The position numbers and the translations under genes are program-made. A stretch of DNA of 64,000 bases, taken from Patescibacteria group bacterium (GTDB lineage: Bacteria; Patescibacteriota; Minisyncoccia; Minisyncoccales; JAHCRE01). This document shows, in pieces, positions 3,467 to 64,000 of this stretch (positions are counted from its first letter, which is position 1; every line of letters begins with the position of its first letter). Where the stretch lies: positions 5,378 to 69,377 of the forward strand of contig JAHCRF010000001.1 in assembly GCA_020148055.1 (NCBI GenBank), given 5' to 3'. The notes beneath the pieces were generated by a model, which saw only the letters and a list, made by a program, of their open reading frames with translations, was not told where the DNA came from and did not search any database.

Positions 3467-5275
3467 TTGCCAAAAAATATGAAAATTCCATTTTTAAAAA
3501 GAAAAAAAGAAATAGAAATTCCCAAGAAAATATTTGAAGCAGAAATCCTCAAAGTAACTGATATTATTGCCCCTTCTTCAATTGAAATTTCTCAGAATTA
3601 TCTAAAATTGGGAGAGAAATTTGCCAGAAGTTATTTTATTTTTTCTTATCCAAGATATTTAAGTGCTGCCTGGCTTTCTCCGGTTATAAATTTAGATATT
3701 CCTCTAGATATTTCCTTTTTTATCCACCCAATTGAAACTGGAACGGTTTTGAAACAATTAGTAAAAAGGGTGACTGAAGTTCAATCAGAAATTATGGAAA
3801 GAGAAGAAAAAGGTCTTGTTCGAGACCCAGTTTTAGAAACTGCTTTCCGGGATTTAGAAGAATTAAGAGACAAGCTTCAGACCGCTCGAGAAAAGATGTT
3901 TAAATTTGGCCTTTATCTTACTGTTTATGTTGATAAAGAAGAAGATTTTAGAGCTATTGAAACTACTCTCCGCTCAATCCTTGAAGCCAGACTAATTTAT
4001 ATAAAACCAGCTCTTTTCCAACAACACGAAGGATTTATCTCCAGTTCTCCTTATTGCTTGGATCGGCTCCTAATCCATACCCCAATGAATACTGAGCCCC
4101 TCTCTTCTATCTTTCCTTTTATCTCTTTTGACTTGAGCTCCAACGAAGGGATTTTATATGGGGTAAACCGTCATAATAATTCTCTAATTTTATTCGATAG
4201 ATTCAGTTTAGAGAATGCGAATGAGGTAGTTTTTGCCAAGGCCGGTAGTGGAAAATCATATGCTGTAAAATTGGAAGTTTTACGATCCTTAATGTTAAAT
4301 GTGGACGTGATAGTTATTGATCCCGAGAATGAATATATGTTTTTATCTGATGCCGTTGGTGGTTCTTTCTTTAAAATTTCTCTAACCTCTCCAAATCATA
4401 TTAACCCTTTTGAATTACCTCCCCCCAGAGAAGATGAAAAACCGGAAGATGTTCTAAGATCGAATACTATAAACTTGGTCGGTTTATTAAGGATTATGTT
4501 AGGGGGGTTAACTCCGGAAGAAGATGCTATTATTGACAGAGCCTTAACTGAAACTTATGCCGCCAAAGACATTACCCCTGAATCTGATCCCGCTCTCTGG
4601 AAAGAAAATCTTCCTCTGATGGAAGATTTAGAAACAGTCCTGGAAACTATGGAGGGAACTGAATCATTAGTGAGAAGGTTGCAGAAATTCACCAAAGGAG
4701 CCTACTCCTCGTTTTTCAACCAACCTTCAAATATCTCAATGGAAAACAACATGGTTATCTTCGGAATAAGAGATATGGAAGAAGAGTTAAGACCAATGGC
4801 CCTTTATATAATTTTGAGATATATTTGGAAGACAGTCAGAGCCACTCTTAAAAAAAGAATTTTGATTGTTGATGAGGCTTGGTGGTTAATGCAATCAGAA
4901 GACGGAGCTTCATTCCTCTATGGAGTTTGTAAGCGAGCAAGGAAATACTGGTTGGGGGTAACAACAATTACCCAGGATATCGGAGATTTTATGAAGTCAT
5001 CCTACGGTCAACCAATCATTACCAACTCTTCTTTACAACTTTTATTAAAGCAATCACCAGCCACAATCGACATCGTCAAAAAAACCTTTCTTTTAACTGA
5101 GCAAGAAAAATATATGTTGTTAGAAGCAGCAGTAGGTGAGGGGTTATTTTTCGCCGGGCAAAAACACGTCGCCATAAAAGTAGTTGCCTCTTATGCTGAA
5201 GACCAGATAATTACCACAGCCCCTGAAGAAGTTTTAAAAATAAGAAAAGCAAAAAAAGAGTTAGCTGAAGAATAA
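3467..5275 (+). CDS. VirB4/TrbE-like type IV secretion ATPase, C-terminal ATPase portion
   Basis: Walker A FAKAGSGKSYAV, Walker B ILIVDEAWWLM (the DEAW signature) and the C-terminal TTITQDIGDF motif. 602 aa; with the upstream 215-aa ORF this totals about 817 aa, typical of full-length VirB4. Confidence 0.75.
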   Translation: MPKNMKIPFLKRKKEIEIPKKIFEAEILKVTDIIAPSSIEISQNYLKLGEKFARSYFIFSYPRYLSAAWLSPVINLDIPLDISFFIHPIETGTVLKQLVKRVTEVQSEIMEREEKGLVRDPVLETAFRDLEELRDKLQTAREKMFKFGLYLTVYVDKEEDFRAIETTLRSILEARLIYIKPALFQQHEGFISSSPYCLDRLLIHTPMNTEPLSSIFPFISFDLSSNEGILYGVNRHNNSLILFDRFSLENANEVVFAKAGSGKSYAVKLEVLRSLMLNVDVIVIDPENEYMFLSDAVGGSFFKISLTSPNHINPFELPPPREDEKPEDVLRSNTINLVGLLRIMLGGLTPEEDAIIDRALTETYAAKDITPESDPALWKENLPLMEDLETVLETMEGTESLVRRLQKFTKGAYSSFFNQPSNISMENNMVIFGIRDMEEELRPMALYIILRYIWKTVRATLKKRILIVDEAWWLMQSEDGASFLYGVCKRARKYWLGVTTITQDIGDFMKSSYGQPIITNSSLQLLLKQSPATIDIVKKTFLLTEQEKYMLLEAAVGEGLFFAGQKHVAIKVVASYAEDQIITTAPEEVLKIRKAKKELAEE

Positions 5276-20380: not shown

Positions 20381-20487
20381 CGAATCTACTTTTATTTTAT
20401 ACCAAAAATAAAAAAAAAGCCAAAAGCCTTTTCACTAATAACTAAGAACTATCAACTAATAACTAAAATTGCAAAGCAATTTTCCAG

Positions 20488-20560
20488 TGCCTCCAGCAGG
20501 AGTCGAACCTGCAACTCACGGCTTAAGAGGCCGTTACTCTTCCAATTGAGTTATGGAGGC
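20488..20560 (-). tRNA. tRNA-Lys (anticodon CUU)
   Basis: Cloverleaf folded by hand: acceptor GCCTCCA/TGGAGGC, anticodon stem ACGGC/GCCGT, loop CUCUUAA, T-loop GGTTCGACTCC. Confidence 0.85.
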
Positions 20561-44742: not shown

Positions 44743-45299
44743 AATTGAAGCCCGAGAGAAAAATTTATCTATCTTTAATAATTTTTGGAATAATAACTAT
44801 TTTATTAATTATTTTGATAATTCACCCCCTTTTTAAAGGAATCCAAAAAAATTCTGAAGAGTTCATTTCTCAGAAAAAGAAGTTAATTTTGCTCCAAGAA
44901 GAAATGAAAAGTCTCAAAGAAACAGAGGTTCTTTATAAAACCTATCAAACCAATATAGATAAAATTGATGATCTTTTTGCTGATCCGGAAGTCCCGATTG
45001 AATTCATCGAGTTTTTAGAAAAAAATGCGGAGAAATCTCAACTCTCAATTAAGATTTCTCTAATGGCTAGAAAAGAAACGGAGCCCTGGCCTAGTCTTTT
45101 TTTTCAAATCTCAACTGTTGGTTCTTTTCCTAATCTCTTAAAATTTTTAGAGAAATTAGAAGCTAGTTCTTATTTAATTGAAATTTCAGATTTGAACGTA
45201 AAAAGATTAACTGAAAAAGAGCTTCAATCAGACGAATTCAGAACTTTTTCCCTTGGTGATGTTTATACTATGTTTTTAATAAAAGTTCTCACCAAATGA
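44739..45299 (+). CDS. pilO: PilO-like bitopic membrane protein
   Basis: Single TM plus coiled-coil. Translationally coupled to pilN (4-nt overlap). 186 aa. Confidence 0.5.
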   Translation: MKLKPERKIYLSLIIFGIITILLIILIIHPLFKGIQKNSEEFISQKKKLILLQEEMKSLKETEVLYKTYQTNIDKIDDLFADPEVPIEFIEFLEKNAEKSQLSIKISLMARKETEPWPSLFFQISTVGSFPNLLKFLEKLEASSYLIEISDLNVKRLTEKELQSDEFRTFSLGDVYTMFLIKVLTK

Positions 45300-45300
45300 A

Positions 45301-45416
45301 AAGTCGCGGCACGCGACGGTCGCTCTTGCGACCGCGCTAACACCGCTCCTTAAAACCCATCGGTTTTAATCTTTCCGCTACGGGAAAACACCCAGTTTTC
45401 CCGACCCCTTTCTAAA
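45301..45416 (-). repeat. GC-rich ~115-nt intergenic element, copy A (inverted relative to copy B at 62003-62122)
   Basis: The reverse complement shares AGAAAGGGGTCGGGAAAACTG(A/G)GTG and CGGAAA(G/T)ATTAAAACCGATGGGTTTTAAGGAGCGG with 62003-62122. Contains hairpins CGGGAAAAC/GTTTTCCCG and AAAACC/GGTTTT. Confidence 0.55.
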
Positions 45417-45424
45417 TTTTTATC

Positions 45425-45754
45425 ATGATAAAAATTCCATTGAAATTTAAAAAAGACAAAGAATTTTTTAAGAAAATTCTAAGGATTCTAGGAGAGCATA
45501 TTTTTTTAAGTTTCCTCGTCCTCCTTTTTTTAGCTTTAATTTTAGGTGGTTTTATTTTTTATCAATATAGTTTTTTAGCTGAAAAGTTAGAACCTCAGAT
45601 TATTGAAAAACCCCTTCAGTTTGAAGAAGCTCTTTATCAAAAAATTTCAGAAGAATGGCAGATTCGCCAGAGAAGATTTGAGGAAACTGAATTAAAAGAA
45701 TATCCAGATTTATTTCGACTCCTTATTTTAATCCCCGAGGAATTGACTGAATAG
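45425..45754 (+). CDS. hypothetical small bitopic membrane protein (109 aa)
   Basis: One TM helix and an acidic C-terminus. It follows the pil genes. Confidence 0.35.
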   Translation: MIKIPLKFKKDKEFFKKILRILGEHIFLSFLVLLFLALILGGFIFYQYSFLAEKLEPQIIEKPLQFEEALYQKISEEWQIRQRRFEETELKEYPDLFRLLILIPEELTE

Positions 45755-61472: not shown

Positions 61473-61997
61473 CATATGGAATTTTTAAATCCACAAGAAG
61501 TTTTAAATCAATTGGAATTAGAGGGTGATATGATTGCTGCTGATTTTGGTTCAGGTTCTGGCGGCTGGGCAATACCTTTGGCAAAAAGATTGAAATTTGG
61601 AAGAGTCTATGCTATTGATATTTTAGAGGAGCCTCTTTCAGCTCTTAAAAGTAAGGGAGAGATTGAAAGAGTTTTCAATATTGAGACTGTACGTTCTAAT
61701 GTGGAAGCAAAACAGGGTTCAAAGCTTGCCGATTCTTTTTGCGATTTAGTTCTAATAACCAATCTCTTGTTTGAAGCAAAGGATAAAAAGATAATTATGG
61801 ATGAAGCAAAAAGAGCTTTAAAAAAGAAAGGAAAAATTTTAGTTGTTGATTGGTTTCCCGAAGCTCCTCTTGGTCCAAAAGAAGGCAGAGTTTCAGCTGC
61901 CGACGTTAAAAAAATAGCTCAAGATTTAAATTTAAAATTAGAAAAAGAATTTAAAGCCGGAGCTTACCATTATGGCTTAATATTTATAAAGCCATAA
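61473..61997 (+). CDS. class I SAM-dependent methyltransferase
   Basis: Motif I IAADFGSGSGGW. Start set at ATG 61473 (MEFLNPQE) to avoid overlap with gyrA. Confidence 0.6.
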   Translation, partial: HMEFLNPQEVLNQLELEGDMIAADFGSGSGGWAIPLAKRLKFGRVYAIDILEEPLSALKSKGEIERVFNIETVRSNVEAKQGSKLADSFCDLVLITNLLFEAKDKKIIMDEAKRALKKKGKILVVDWFPEAPLGPKEGRVSAADVKKIAQDLNLKLEKEFKAGAYHYGLIFIKP

Positions 61998-62002
61998 TGA
62001 GA

Positions 62003-62122
62003 GAAAGGGGTCGGGAAAACTGAGTGCAGGGGCCCGCAAAGCGGGAGGGTGGTGGGTGGGTTGGAGTCCCGTGGCGGAAATATTAAAACCGATGGGTTTT
62101 AAGGAGCGGAGCGACCATTAGT
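62003..62122 (+). repeat. GC-rich ~120-nt intergenic element, copy B (with G-rich insert)
   Basis: Shares both flanking blocks with the reverse complement of 45301-45416. The internal insert contains GGGAGGGTGGTGGGTGGGTTGG (62043-62064). It ends in AAAACCGATGGGTTTTAAGGAGCGG. Confidence 0.55.
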
Positions 62123-62174
62123 GTTTAGTCTTTACTAAATTATAGTCTTTGCTAAAATTAACTAATATTTGTTT

Positions 62175-62580: not shown

Positions 62581-63036
62581 ATGAATAATATGAGAAAAAT
62601 TATTTCAGTTCTAATCTTAGCTGCTTTGCTTTTACCCCTAGTTGCTTTAGCTCAGATAGAGGTAAAGGAGTGCTGTACTCTTCATAAAACAATTACAGTT
62701 GAGGGAGACACCTGTGCCGAAGGTGATGTAGCAGCTCCTGATGCAGCAGCAGCTGCAGATTGTGCAGGAGCCTACTGTGCAGCTTCAGCAGATGCTTGGG
62801 GAATGTTTTGTCTTTTAAATAGCATTTACCGAGTTACTGACTGGGTCTCTTACATCTTATTTGCTTTTGTTGGAGTGATGATAATTATTGGAGCCTTTAC
62901 AATTGTTACAGCTGGTGGATCGCCCGACAAGGTGTCTTCTGGAAGAAATTACATTGTGTATGCGATCATTGGTTTAGTAGTTGCCTTTTTTGCCAGGGCT
63001 ATTCCTGCTCTTGTCAAGGCAGTGATAGGAATGTAA
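62581..63036 (+). CDS. Cys-rich secreted VirB2/TrbC-like pilin-family protein, paralogue 1
   Basis: Signal peptide ending ALAQ; six-Cys ectodomain; conserved LLNSIYRVTDWVSY; two TM helices separated by TAGGSPDKVSSGRN. Confidence 0.5.
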   Translation: MNNMRKIISVLILAALLLPLVALAQIEVKECCTLHKTITVEGDTCAEGDVAAPDAAAAADCAGAYCAASADAWGMFCLLNSIYRVTDWVSYILFAFVGVMIIIGAFTIVTAGGSPDKVSSGRNYIVYAIIGLVVAFFARAIPALVKAVIGM

Positions 63037-63656
63037 AGAGAGAAAAATTTGGTAAATTTTAACTTCTTGTTCGGAGAGAATAAGAGATTTTGATTGAATT
63101 CGAAATGCAGAGAGTTGAGCAAAATAACTTCCGGCTTTAGAGTCTGCGGTCCAAGAAACAATATGAGCAAAATTATTTTAGTTTTAGCTTTGGTAAGTTT
63201 ATTGAGCCTCTTGCTTTTACCAATGGTAGCCTTGGCTCAGATAGAAATAAAGGAGTGCTGTACTCTTCATAAAACAATTACAGTTGATACGGTTACCTGT
63301 AACGAAGATACTGTGGCAGCTCCTGATGCAGCAGCAGCTGCAGATTGTGCAGGAGCCTACTGTGCAGCTTCAGCAGATGTTTGGGGAATGTTTTGTATTT
63401 TGAATACTATTTACCGAGTTACTGACTGGGTCTCTTACATCTTATTTGCTTTTGTTGGAGTGATGATAATTATTGGAGCCTTTACAATTGTTACAGCTGG
63501 TGGATCGCCCGACAAGGTGTCTTCTGGAAGAAATTACATTGTGTATGCGATCATTGGTTTAGTAGTTGCCTTTTTTGCCAGGGCTATTCCTGCTCTTGTC
63601 AAGGCAGTGATAGGAATGTAAAGAGAGAAAAATTTGGTAAATTTTAACTTTCTATT
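62641..63656 (+). repeat. tandem direct duplication (two ~430-nt copies at a period of about 590 bp) spanning the two Cys-rich pilin-like genes
   Basis: 62722-63068 and 63310-63656 are almost base-for-base identical, including the shared 3' flank TAAAGAGAGAAAAATTTGGTAAATTTTAACTT. The 5' portions are diverged. Confidence 0.7.
63163..63621 (+). CDS. Cys-rich secreted VirB2/TrbC-like pilin-family protein, paralogue 2 (tandem duplicate)
   Basis: C-terminal about 100 aa and the 3' UTR are nearly identical at DNA level to 62581-63068. The N-terminal ectodomain segment differs (DTVTCNEDTVA versus EGDTCAEGDVA). Start placed at ATG 63163 (MSKIILV). Confidence 0.5.
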   Translation: MSKIILVLALVSLLSLLLLPMVALAQIEIKECCTLHKTITVDTVTCNEDTVAAPDAAAAADCAGAYCAASADVWGMFCILNTIYRVTDWVSYILFAFVGVMIIIGAFTIVTAGGSPDKVSSGRNYIVYAIIGLVVAFFARAIPALVKAVIGM

Positions 63657-63776: not shown

Positions 63777-63858
63777 GCCGAGGTGGTGAAACTGGAAAAC
63801 ACGTAGGATTTAGGATCCTATGGCGAAAGCTTTGTGGGTTCAAATCCCACCCTCGGCA
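63777..63858 (+). tRNA. tRNA-Leu (anticodon UAG), type II
   Basis: Acceptor GCCGAGG/CCTCGGC, anticodon stem TAGGA/TCCTA, loop UUUAGGA, long variable arm, T-arm GTGGG-TTCAAAT-CCCAC. Confidence 0.8.
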
Positions 63859-63860
63859 CA

Positions 63861-63892
63861 GCAAAAGTCGCCAAAAAGGCGACTTTTAGTTA
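63861..63892 (+). terminator. rho-independent terminator after tRNA-Leu
   Basis: AAAAGTCGCC-AAAAA-GGCGACTTTT followed by AGTT. Confidence 0.5.
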
Positions 63893-64000
63893 TTAGTTTC
63901 TAGTTATTAGTTTTTTATTCTTTCACTTCTATCTTTCTTTTTTTCTCCCTCTCAATTTTAGGTATCCTTATAGTTAAAATTCCTTCTTTAAAAGATGCTT

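Follow-up and report, generated by a model that had tools for sequence, protein, structure and literature searches.

A folded, non-coding element family at the 3' ends of genes in Patescibacteria

Two short, GC-rich intergenic segments lie in inverted orientation in the window (the whole 64-kb stretch analysed here, from a metagenome scaffold of Patescibacteria), one after pilO and the other upstream of pilin-like genes. Their presence raises the question of what kind of sequence they represent. An earlier note, made from the letters of the window, had offered a small ncRNA family, a REP/MITE-like mobile element or a shared regulatory module as candidates, with a chance similarity of two terminator-like regions as the fallback.

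The two window copies and their relatives

A covariance model built from relatives and run with filters off identified copy A (45303-45413, minus strand) and copy B (62003-62115, plus strand) as the only two copies in the window, scoring 88.4 and 71.7 bits for the pair compared to 14.2 bits for the next match. Alignment of the reverse complement of copy A with the plus strand of copy B revealed two exact blocks with copy-specific indels between them: AGAAAGGGGTCGGGAAAACTG at 45393-45413 (-) and 62002-62022 (+), and AAAACCGATGGGTTTTAAGGAGCGG at 45343-45367 (-) and 62085-62109 (+). Neither block had a third match in the window with up to three mismatches allowed, none of 100 dinucleotide-preserving shuffles contained a match, and the pair of copies forms the longest inverted repeat of the window. 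The GC contents of the cores are 0.57 and 0.59, compared to 0.35 for the window. Two inverted copies with exact shared blocks, forming islands of about 60% GC in AT-rich DNA, were therefore borne out where the earlier note had placed them.

Some details of that description required revision (Table 1). The positions given for the cores held, but the bounds were too narrow, as the pairing partners (45417-45424/45295-45302 and 61993-61999/62116-62122) lie outside them. The G-rich insert of copy B, put at 35 nt, measured approximately 46 nt and replaces the tip of helix P2; the proposed check for a G-quadruplex returned a motif of this type within it. Expansions of this kind are common to L011, L068, L096 and L116 and absent in the syntenic locus L092. 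Copy A does have the "extra palindromic tail" (45306-45346), but this is the expanded helix P4 of a subfamily (L047, L104, L113, L118, L134 and L137) and not an extra peculiar to this copy. The terminator-like hairpin called in copy A is part of this same helix and was the only intrinsic terminator call there (GC-rich hairpin with a U-run at the 3' end); copy B had none on its own strand.

Table 1. Positions of the parts of copies A and B in the window, with helices and junctions named after the predicted fold
Feature	Copy	Position	Strand	Sequence or remark
X, native flank	A	45425..45434	-	TTTTTATCAT; antisense of the start ATGATAAAAA of a 109-aa gene, read directly from the sequence
antiX, P1 5' strand	A	45417..45424	-	GAUAAAAA
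Junction J1/2	A	45404..45413	-	AGAAAGGGGU; purine strand mirroring the P2 purine strand
Helix P2	A	45381..45403	-	CGGGAAAAC-UGGGU-GUUUUCCCG
Junction J2/3	A	45370..45380	-	UAGCGGAAAGA; C45377 covaries with tetraloop base G45358
Helix P3	A	45350..45369	-	UUAAAACC-GAUG-GGUUUUAA
J3/4, P4 and 3' GAC	A	45303..45349	-	GGA (45347-49), P4 (45306-46), GAC (45303-05)
Expanded P4	A	45306-46	-	GCGG UGUUAG ... GUG CCGC
X', P1 3' strand	A	45295..45302	-	UUUUCAUU; overlaps the + strand pilO stop codon
X	B	61968..61997	+	last 9 codons and stop of the methyltransferase gene (HYGLIFIKP, stop)
antiX, P1 5' strand	B	61993..61999	+	CAUAAUG; overlaps the stop codon
Junction J1/2	B	62003..62011	+	GAAAGGGGU
Helix P2	B	62012..62071	+	CGGGA...UCCCG with 46-nt expansion 62021-66
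P2 expansion	B	62021-66	+	hairpin CCCGCAAAGCGGG and G-quadruplex-type motif GGGAGGGTGGTGGGTGGG (62043-60)
Junction J2/3	B	62072..62082	+	UGGCGGAAAUA; C62075 predicted to pair with tetraloop base G62094
Helix P3	B	62083..62102	+	UUAAAACC-GAUG-GGUUUUAA
J3/4, P4 and 3' GAC	B	62103..62115	+	GGA, minimal P4 (GCGGAGC), GAC
X'	B	62116..62145	+	decayed second methyltransferase 3' end; first bases are the P1 3' strand

A pattern scan of species-representative genomes returned 18 places. Eight were true homologues in which the 5' block was also present, found in eight Patescibacteria species genomes (Paceibacteria, the Parcubacteria group, Colwellbacteria and Saccharibacteria), and the other 10 were chance matches in unrelated phyla. 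Scanning of a metagenome collection gave at least 120 contigs with the element; the patterns for both collections were validated on the window or on known loci before use. IMG/VR, GenBank phages and plasmids gave no match to the element pattern, and the family is, as far as sampled, confined to Patescibacteria. The covariance model also detected copies outside the scan pattern at the same loci, some of them in tandem and one differing in its P3 sequence, so the family is broader than the pattern; since all loci were gathered by a pattern fixed on P3, the invariance of P3 and the limits of the family both carry that bias. The cores are 72-130 nt long, GC-rich and non-coding, and near-identical cores occur in both Saccharibacteria and Paceibacteria.

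Known RNA families did not account for the element. The Rfam scan that the earlier note had proposed, run on the window with Rfam 15 at gathering thresholds, returned only 19 tRNA matches, and permissive Rfam scans of both copies and eight canonical relatives gave nothing above chance (best overlaps 13-24 bits, E at least 0.5). ARAGORN called 20 tRNA genes in the window, and none of its tRNA or tmRNA calls overlaps the element. Neither topic searches nor searches with sequence strings turned up a description of the element in the limited literature searched; the family is apparently undescribed so far.

Predicted fold of the core

As a single strand, the core folds, on the evidence of an alignment of 69 short-form members, into a four-way junction of helices P1-P4. 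The layout from 5' to 3' is flank (P1), NN, GAAAGGGGU, P2 (CGGGAAAAC/GUUUUCCCG), UGGCGGAAAUA, P3 (YUAAAACC/GGUUUUAR, closed by a tetraloop), GGA, P4, GAC and 3' flank (P1). P1 is formed from locus-specific flanks. Most P2 helices end in a GNRA-type loop or carry a large expansion, P3 hardly varies, and P4 is variable, with GCGAAGC as its minimal form.

Pairing is found in 96.5% of the cells of this alignment. The covariation score was 0.217 compared to 0.105 ± 0.006 for shuffled alignments, none of 500 shuffles reached the observed value, and all slid controls collapsed. Double changes occurred in six of the nine P2 pairs, and the closing pair of P3 was U-A in 38 members, C-G in 29 and A-U in one. 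A tertiary pair between the base 5' of GGAAA and base 4 of the tetraloop was C-G in 38 members, U-A in 21, A-U in two, G-C in two and something else in six; this pair and the P3 closing pair rank highest in mutual information across the alignment. RNAalifold recovered P2 and P3 independently, while the inner P3 pairs, being fixed by the search pattern, are uninformative for the fold either way. Compensatory helix changes of this kind are what is generally expected of a structured RNA. The earlier note had made its reading depend on further copies and on covariation, and both are present. G.U and A.C mismatches were equally common (21:19 and 26:19), i.e., a strand-specific tolerance of G.U over A.C was not seen, in a comparison that is uninformative on the functional strand and on the type of nucleic acid. 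An additional closing helix between J1/2 and the 3' end (GUCG/CGAC) was considered and dropped, as the GGGCGACGGG subfamily keeps the 3' CGAC without compensation.

The purine strands of J1/2 and P2 are mirror repeats of each other and covary (e.g., AAAGGGG-UC-GGGAAAA, AAGGGGG-UC-GGGGAAA and GAGGGGG-CGA-GGGGGAG). Alignment columns 19/29/49 read A/A-U in 37 members and G/G-C in 18, and the mirror run lay above all 200 partner shuffles. In a purine-motif (reverse-Hoogsteen) triplex, a purine strand folds back antiparallel to the purine strand of a duplex, and the mirror relationship suggests a likely triplex of this antiparallel type between J1/2 and P2. The evidence for purine-motif triplexes with RNA third strands is mixed, and they are better documented for DNA (PMC7583470); intrastrand DNA triplex motifs occur in bacterial repeats (PMC4666352). 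Whichever nucleic acid is involved, a four-way junction with a loop-junction tertiary pair and a candidate triplex would be a new structural class to model.

Gene ends on both sides of the core

The usual order at a locus is the 3' end of a gene or tRNA (X), an optional spacer, antiX, the core, and a second gene end (X'). X is the 3' end of the co-oriented upstream gene and sits 5-110 nt upstream; X' begins immediately after GAC and repeats X downstream, extending to the stop codon or to the end of the tRNA. The resulting direct repeats can be as short as 7 nt or exceed 80 nt. Between them, antiX can pair over 5-20 nt with the start of X/X'. In most loci antiX complements the sequence directly after GAC, and 43% of loci had a P1 score of at least 6 compared to 2.7% with shuffled partners; antiX was often mismatched to X' where X equals X'. 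The 5' spacer is variable. X' of copy B (CAT TAG TGT TTA GTC TTT ACT AAA TTA TAG) is identical to X at 18 of 30 positions.

Among the matches listed, the element follows approximately 20 different housekeeping genes and 12 types of tRNA. The hosts in this set include rpsI (about 15 loci), rplK, pgk, gap, mraY, pyrG and groEL as well as clpP, nusG, uvrA, uvrC, gyrB and a proton pyrophosphatase gene, and a co-oriented tRNA of one of 12 isoacceptor types lies within 200 nt upstream in 29 of 124 instances. Where X is of the tRNA type it spans the T-loop to the tRNA 3' end, and the tRNA-associated members share T-loop-like P1 sequences, which in one subfamily are copies of neighbouring tRNA 3' ends. 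Interruption of a tRNA or tmRNA gene by the element was considered and dropped, since the upstream tRNAs are intact and neither ARAGORN nor Rfam reported a tmRNA. With so many unrelated housekeeping genes and tRNAs as neighbours, a shared regulatory module for the pilus genes was not supported; the pilus context in the window is incidental.

In Campbell-type integration, too, the direct repeats consist of the 3' end of the target and the gene is restored. An element-encoded integrase was not found, and the repeats enclose nothing but spacer, antiX and core. No protein gene (transposase, integrase or reverse transcriptase) recurred beside the element within 4 kb of approximately 128 loci; several apparent families in the clustering of neighbouring genes were ORFs read through the element itself. 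Integron attC sites (RYYYAAC/GTTRRRY) were absent on sequence inspection, and GAAC...GTTC flanks occurred only in the tRNA-targeting subfamily, off consensus.

Differences between the two gene ends of a locus fall mainly on third codon positions. X/X' mismatches at 35 loci fell on third codon positions 148 times, on first positions 37 times and on second positions 34 times, compared to a ratio of at most about 1.7:1 expected (a rough estimate) from neutral decay after insertion. This excess indicates that X and X' diverged while both were coding, in different genomes, so that one gene-end copy is foreign. The pgk loci L081 and L099 illustrate this: each encodes two complete C-termini that differ from each other and end in separate stop codons (at L081, GGGAMLEFFSGEELPGIVALTK and stop before the core and GGAMLEFFSGEKLPGIEALK and stop after it, with a comparable pair at L099). 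Which copy was imported is hinted at by base composition: at differing third positions, G+C was found in 69 of 118 cases in X' and 47 in X, where the host GC3 predicts 51, and the core-adjacent X' may be the imported one.

Both mraY loci, L031 and L080, have an X identical to X' within the species although the two species differ from each other, which indicates that concerted evolution or repeated recombination also acts. Because the perfect mraY repeats reflect concerted evolution rather than youth, X/X' identity cannot date insertions, and perfect direct repeats were dropped as a sign of recent insertion after this comparison. A template/variable repeat pair of a diversity-generating retroelement (DGR) was likewise dropped, as the differences are of all types, instead of being confined to adenines of a template copy, and at third positions, with no reverse transcriptase nearby.

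Presence and absence of the element could be compared at one site, that of copy A. Relatives L002-L006 (PilM 75-81% identical) have no element between pilO and the next gene, and the two genes overlap or stand 5 nt apart (L005) there, so copy A is an insertion. It is of a minority type, antisense between the two genes, with the usual architecture in small form (X TTTTTATCAT, antiX GATAAAAA, core, X' TTTTCAT); X and antiX together form a perfect 18-nt palindrome (45417-45434). Locus L012, from the genome of the nearest relative, has a 95%-similar element that is also antisense and at a similar target (TTTTTCATAG), TTTTCAT being common to both. Other related elements also sit at similar targets, e.g., tRNA T-loops and rpsI; the rpsI-associated members recur across species, with tandem re-insertions behind rpsI in L061. 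Such similarity of targets among related elements suggests that P1 pairing, or homology, guides the choice of target. Copy B is shared with the syntenic locus L092 (gyrA, methyltransferase, element, pilin-like genes) and is therefore an old insertion behind the methyltransferase gene; its core differs from that of L092 by two substitutions and the P2 indel, compared to an identity of approximately 78% overall (alignment mean).

Proposed movement of the element and competing explanations

We consider it somewhat better than an even chance (a probability of about 0.55) that the family consists of non-coding, horizontally moving integrative elements that target gene ends, act as a folded single strand and are mobilised in trans. 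A small excised or transferred form would carry its own copy of the end of the target gene and would recombine with the chromosomal gene at the antiX-paired sequence in the manner of a Campbell integration. The gene would stay intact, and the gene ends on either side of the element would be similar but not identical. The conserved junction would be recognised by an enzyme supplied in trans, either a recombinase or perhaps a reverse transcriptase, which would carry out the chemistry. The family, its fold, the arrangement of the loci, the foreign origin of one gene end and the filled and empty versions of one site rest on observation, and the excised form, the enzyme and the DNA or RNA nature of the active form are inferred. 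There is a real chance that such a mechanism is new among small non-autonomous mobile elements. In a more specific form, which we put forward tentatively and hold to be doubtful as a whole, the element would be self-contained and would integrate in a programmable way without any protein gene of its own. It would exist as a DNA or RNA circle or fragment, about 150-250 nt long, with a conserved, triplex-containing four-way junction that is catalytic or recruits a host enzyme and a P1 guide (antiX) that sets the crossover, homing to the 3' ends of Patescibacteria genes and tRNAs and supplying a replacement end.

A host RNA is the first alternative, either a small RNA gene or a 3'-UTR structure acting in cis (to block 3' exonucleases, to direct processing or to bind a protein), in each case inherited vertically and conserved for its use to the cell. 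The small ncRNA family of the earlier note belongs here, and it retains covariation including the tertiary pair, GNRA-type P2 loops, conservation in situ (a core nearly unchanged between the window and L092, with flanks approximately 78% identical) and an orientation that agrees with the flanking genes (37 same/same compared to 10 opposite/opposite). Most loci also have no terminator between gene and core (one is present in 22% of loci), and many hosts are highly expressed (rpsI, rplK, gap, pgk, groEL and tRNAs). However, a vertically inherited RNA leaves unexplained the second gene end that diverged under coding constraint, the absence at the orthologous site of relatives, the antisense copies (copy A), the copy that lies in frame in pilB, the tandem copies and the near-identical cores of Saccharibacteria and Paceibacteria. 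Neither an Rfam match nor an excess of G.U over A.C accompanies it. We therefore regard a host RNA as an unlikely explanation.

We rate just as low a non-autonomous retroelement. Its core would be transcribed together with the host gene into an RNA that may itself be a small ribozyme, and a reverse transcriptase supplied in trans would make the copy. Target-primed reverse transcription with X' annealing to the target would generate duplications of variable length and filler at the 5' junction. The variable repeats (7 to more than 80 nt), the precise 3' junction (GAC followed by X') with its variable 5' spacer, the frequent mismatch of antiX to X' where X equals X', the similar targets within subfamilies, the orientation bias and the highly expressed hosts are all consistent with this route. 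Against it, the surroundings of the elements show no recurrent reverse transcriptase gene, no Rfam ribozyme or intron family matches, and purine-motif triplexes are better documented for DNA than for RNA. In addition, X' reaches the exact stop codon or tRNA end and preserves a divergent, intact C-terminus, which fits a replacement end carried by the element better. An intron was also considered and dropped: the insertions are nearly all intergenic, and the one intragenic copy, in frame inside pilB, is read through, which argues against splicing.

It is very unlikely that the family is an ordinary MITE/REP-type repeat that a transposase moves and whose flanking repeats are target-site duplications. 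The REP/MITE-like element was the closest of the three candidates of the earlier note: the family is small, non-coding, structured, interspersed in many unrelated contexts with multiple copies in a genome region, and absent at the orthologous site of copy A; the in-frame intragenic copy is also reminiscent of Rickettsia palindromic elements. But antiX and X' differ at every locus, so that conserved, family-wide terminal inverted repeats are absent, and a fixed target-site duplication is replaced by repeats of 7 to more than 80 nt that end at gene ends and carry a second target-gene 3' end, with third-position differences that are impossible from duplication at insertion. No transposase gene recurs nearby, and a four-way junction of 72-130 nt is not the imperfect palindrome of 20-40 nt that defines REP/REPIN sequences.

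The elements could also be attL/attR scars left by islands or prophages of larger size that encode an integrase and insert at the 3' ends of tRNAs and genes. Direct repeats of target 3' ends, and targets such as the tRNA T-loop and rpsI, are typical of tyrosine-recombinase elements, and both are present here. Yet the repeats are only 100-250 nt apart with spacer, antiX and core alone between them, one core serves dozens of targets, beyond what one site-specific integrase would account for, no integrase recurs nearby, and the viral, phage and plasmid collections gave no match; such scars are quite improbable. Chance similarity of two GC-rich, terminator-like regions, in line with the one such hairpin called inside copy A, is refuted by the exact 21- and 35-nt blocks that no shuffle matched and by at least 120 homologues with covariation, the "terminator" itself being part of P4.

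The preferred reading, a gene-end-targeting element mobilised in trans, has parallels in several known systems. With integrative elements that target 3' ends (tyrosine-recombinase islands, ICEs/IMEs and their integrase-less derivatives) the family has in common direct repeats of gene 3' ends around an intact gene, one foreign repeat copy, and conserved targets (the tRNA T-loop region, rpsI and rplK). It differs in a unit of only about 150-250 nt without an integrase or any other gene, in one core for many targets, and in the target-complementary antiX that closes a helix with the repeat. With MITEs, REP/REPIN, Correia, ERIC and Rickettsia palindromic elements it shares size, lack of coding capacity, interspersion, strong structure, a position just 3' of genes and an occasional in-frame intragenic copy; unlike these, it has a multi-helix junction with tertiary covariation instead of a simple hairpin, and a gene-end duplication under coding constraint. 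By analogy, the family appears to work most like the integrative elements that rebuild 3' ends and to look most like the MITE/REP-type repeats, but the defining features of both are missing: there is no integrase, no shared terminal inverted repeat and no fixed target duplication.

Folded single-stranded DNA recombination sites (attC, IS200/IS605 ends with guide sequences, and the CTX phage attP) are partly defined by structure over sequence, as the element may be; base pairing beside a hairpin might select the target, and the orientation bias could follow the direction of replication. The family has no attC consensus (RYYYAAC...GTTRRRY), its pairing segment is 5-20 nt rather than 4 nt, and it duplicates its target. 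Group IIC introns, which insert just after hairpins and terminators, and IS110 bridge-RNA elements likewise place a locus-specific, target-complementary segment beside a conserved structured core. In contrast to both, the family has no adjacent recombinase or reverse transcriptase gene and no two-loop bridge architecture, and its core is far smaller than a group II intron and has no intron domains according to Rfam. The BoxC/TM motif of E. coli, an intrastrand triplex motif associated with genome rearrangement, is also a repeated element with three consecutive blocks and a purine strand folded back on a hairpin (PMC4666352); in our family, the candidate triplex would be one arm of a larger conserved junction.

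If the preferred reading is correct, Patescibacteria would have a new route of horizontal sequence exchange: a widespread non-coding element would pass from species to species, insert where essential genes and tRNAs end, and restore those ends. The orphan copies of gene ends and tRNA fragments in their genomes would also be explained. These bacteria have tiny genomes and few recognised mobile elements. If antiX/P1 pairing sets the target, the family would represent a compact, natural form of base-pair-programmed integration, and the question of which enzyme reads the fold would be directly testable.

Separate observations touch on whether the active form is RNA or DNA and on use by the host. 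The tertiary pair, GNRA loops, orientation agreement, few terminators and conservation in situ point to RNA and host use, and the conservation of the core over its flanks (L092), the 37:10 orientation ratio and the 22% of loci with terminators would also fit a host-useful, transcribed 3'-UTR RNA. Exaptation as a 3'-UTR structure after insertion is possible and would be compatible with a mobile element. The even G.U and A.C counts, the mirror repeat of the purine motif, the antisense copies (copy A) and the GCGAAGC mini-hairpin point to the level of DNA, this mini-hairpin being unusually stable as DNA.

Coding potential and the copy within pilB

In alignment A2, 54 of the 69 cores had no stop codon in one particular frame, fixed relative to the TAAAACC of helix P3, compared to 23% for shuffled frames, and the remaining two frames were closed in every core. 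The most frequent core length in this frame count was 76 nt as extracted, or about 25 codons. One element lies in frame within the pilB CDS (type IV pilus ATPase) at loci L033 and L062; it is positioned between the cysteine motifs, reads through as ...EGGRGNGSFPVAETLKPQGFKEPGD... and has the 10-nt repeat GCGCGCTATG on both sides.

Elements at tRNA genes

In a tRNA-associated subfamily, the first five bases past the GAC that ends the core are GUGAG, at different tRNAs. These bases oppose UYGAAC and thereby place a conserved tandem G-A/A-G mismatch within P1, the helix of locus-specific flanks; the repeat of the tRNA end begins only from AUUCC. The 64-kb window itself carries 20 tRNA genes, of which 13 fall within 45.8-55.1 kb. 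Although the element favours tRNA ends as targets at other loci, it directly flanks none of these 20.

Two other loci contain further tRNA-like sequences. In L019, CCCCTGCCTCTCCACA resembles the element's tRNA-like 3' flank, ACCCTGCCTCTCCGCCA, and lies about 150 nt downstream of it; the region ending in CCCCTGCCTCTCCACA was not called as a tRNA or tmRNA by ARAGORN or Rfam. In L002, tRNA-like sequences of unusual spacing (…GTCGGGGCACCCAGATTCGAAC…), intergenic and upstream of a histidine kinase gene, may be tRNA genes carrying insertions.

The P2 module, paired elements and other repeats

The P2 expansion of copy B, the window's plus-strand element, contains a canonical G-quadruplex-type motif, GGGAGGGTGGTGGGTGGG, adjoined by a small hairpin, CCCGCAAAGCGGG. 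This module is kept in P2 of other members (L011, L068, L096 and L116), and in L012 it is inverted, immediately 5' of GGTCGGG, in place of the purine strand J1/2. L061, L094, L052 and L017 each hold two elements; those of L061 stand in tandem behind rpsI, and a separate copy of the rpsI 3' end comes after each of them.

Each arm of a second inverted repeat pair in the window is immediately downstream of a tRNA gene; this pair is AT-rich and has no relation to the GC-rich folded element. A direct repeat downstream of copy B reflects two tandem paralogous pilin-like genes with a TrbC/VirB2-type C-terminus, and similar genes occupy the same position in L092.

Positions of the features described
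Feature	Position	Strand	Detail
tRNA-associated subfamily	L027, L041, L043, L055, L106, L111		3' flank GAC GTGAGATTC...
G-quadruplex-type motif	window 62043-62060		
Inverted module	L012 about 4965-5005		
Element in pilB	L033 2581-2681; L062 7618-7718		
Two elements	L061 5113-5346; L094 3902-4222; L052 3082-3509; L017 2578-2695 + 5075-5184		
tRNA-like sequence	L019 7100-7140		
tRNA-like sequences	L002 545-760	-	
tRNA genes, span	window 20487-63859		
Second inverted repeat pair	window 20437-20468 + 63884-63915		32 nt, 88% complementary, AATAACTAAGAACTATCAACTAATAACTAAAA
tRNA-Lys beside one arm	window 20487-20560	-	
tRNA-Leu beside other arm	window 63777-63859	+	
Direct repeat	window 62626-62925 + 63211-63510		300 nt, 92% identical
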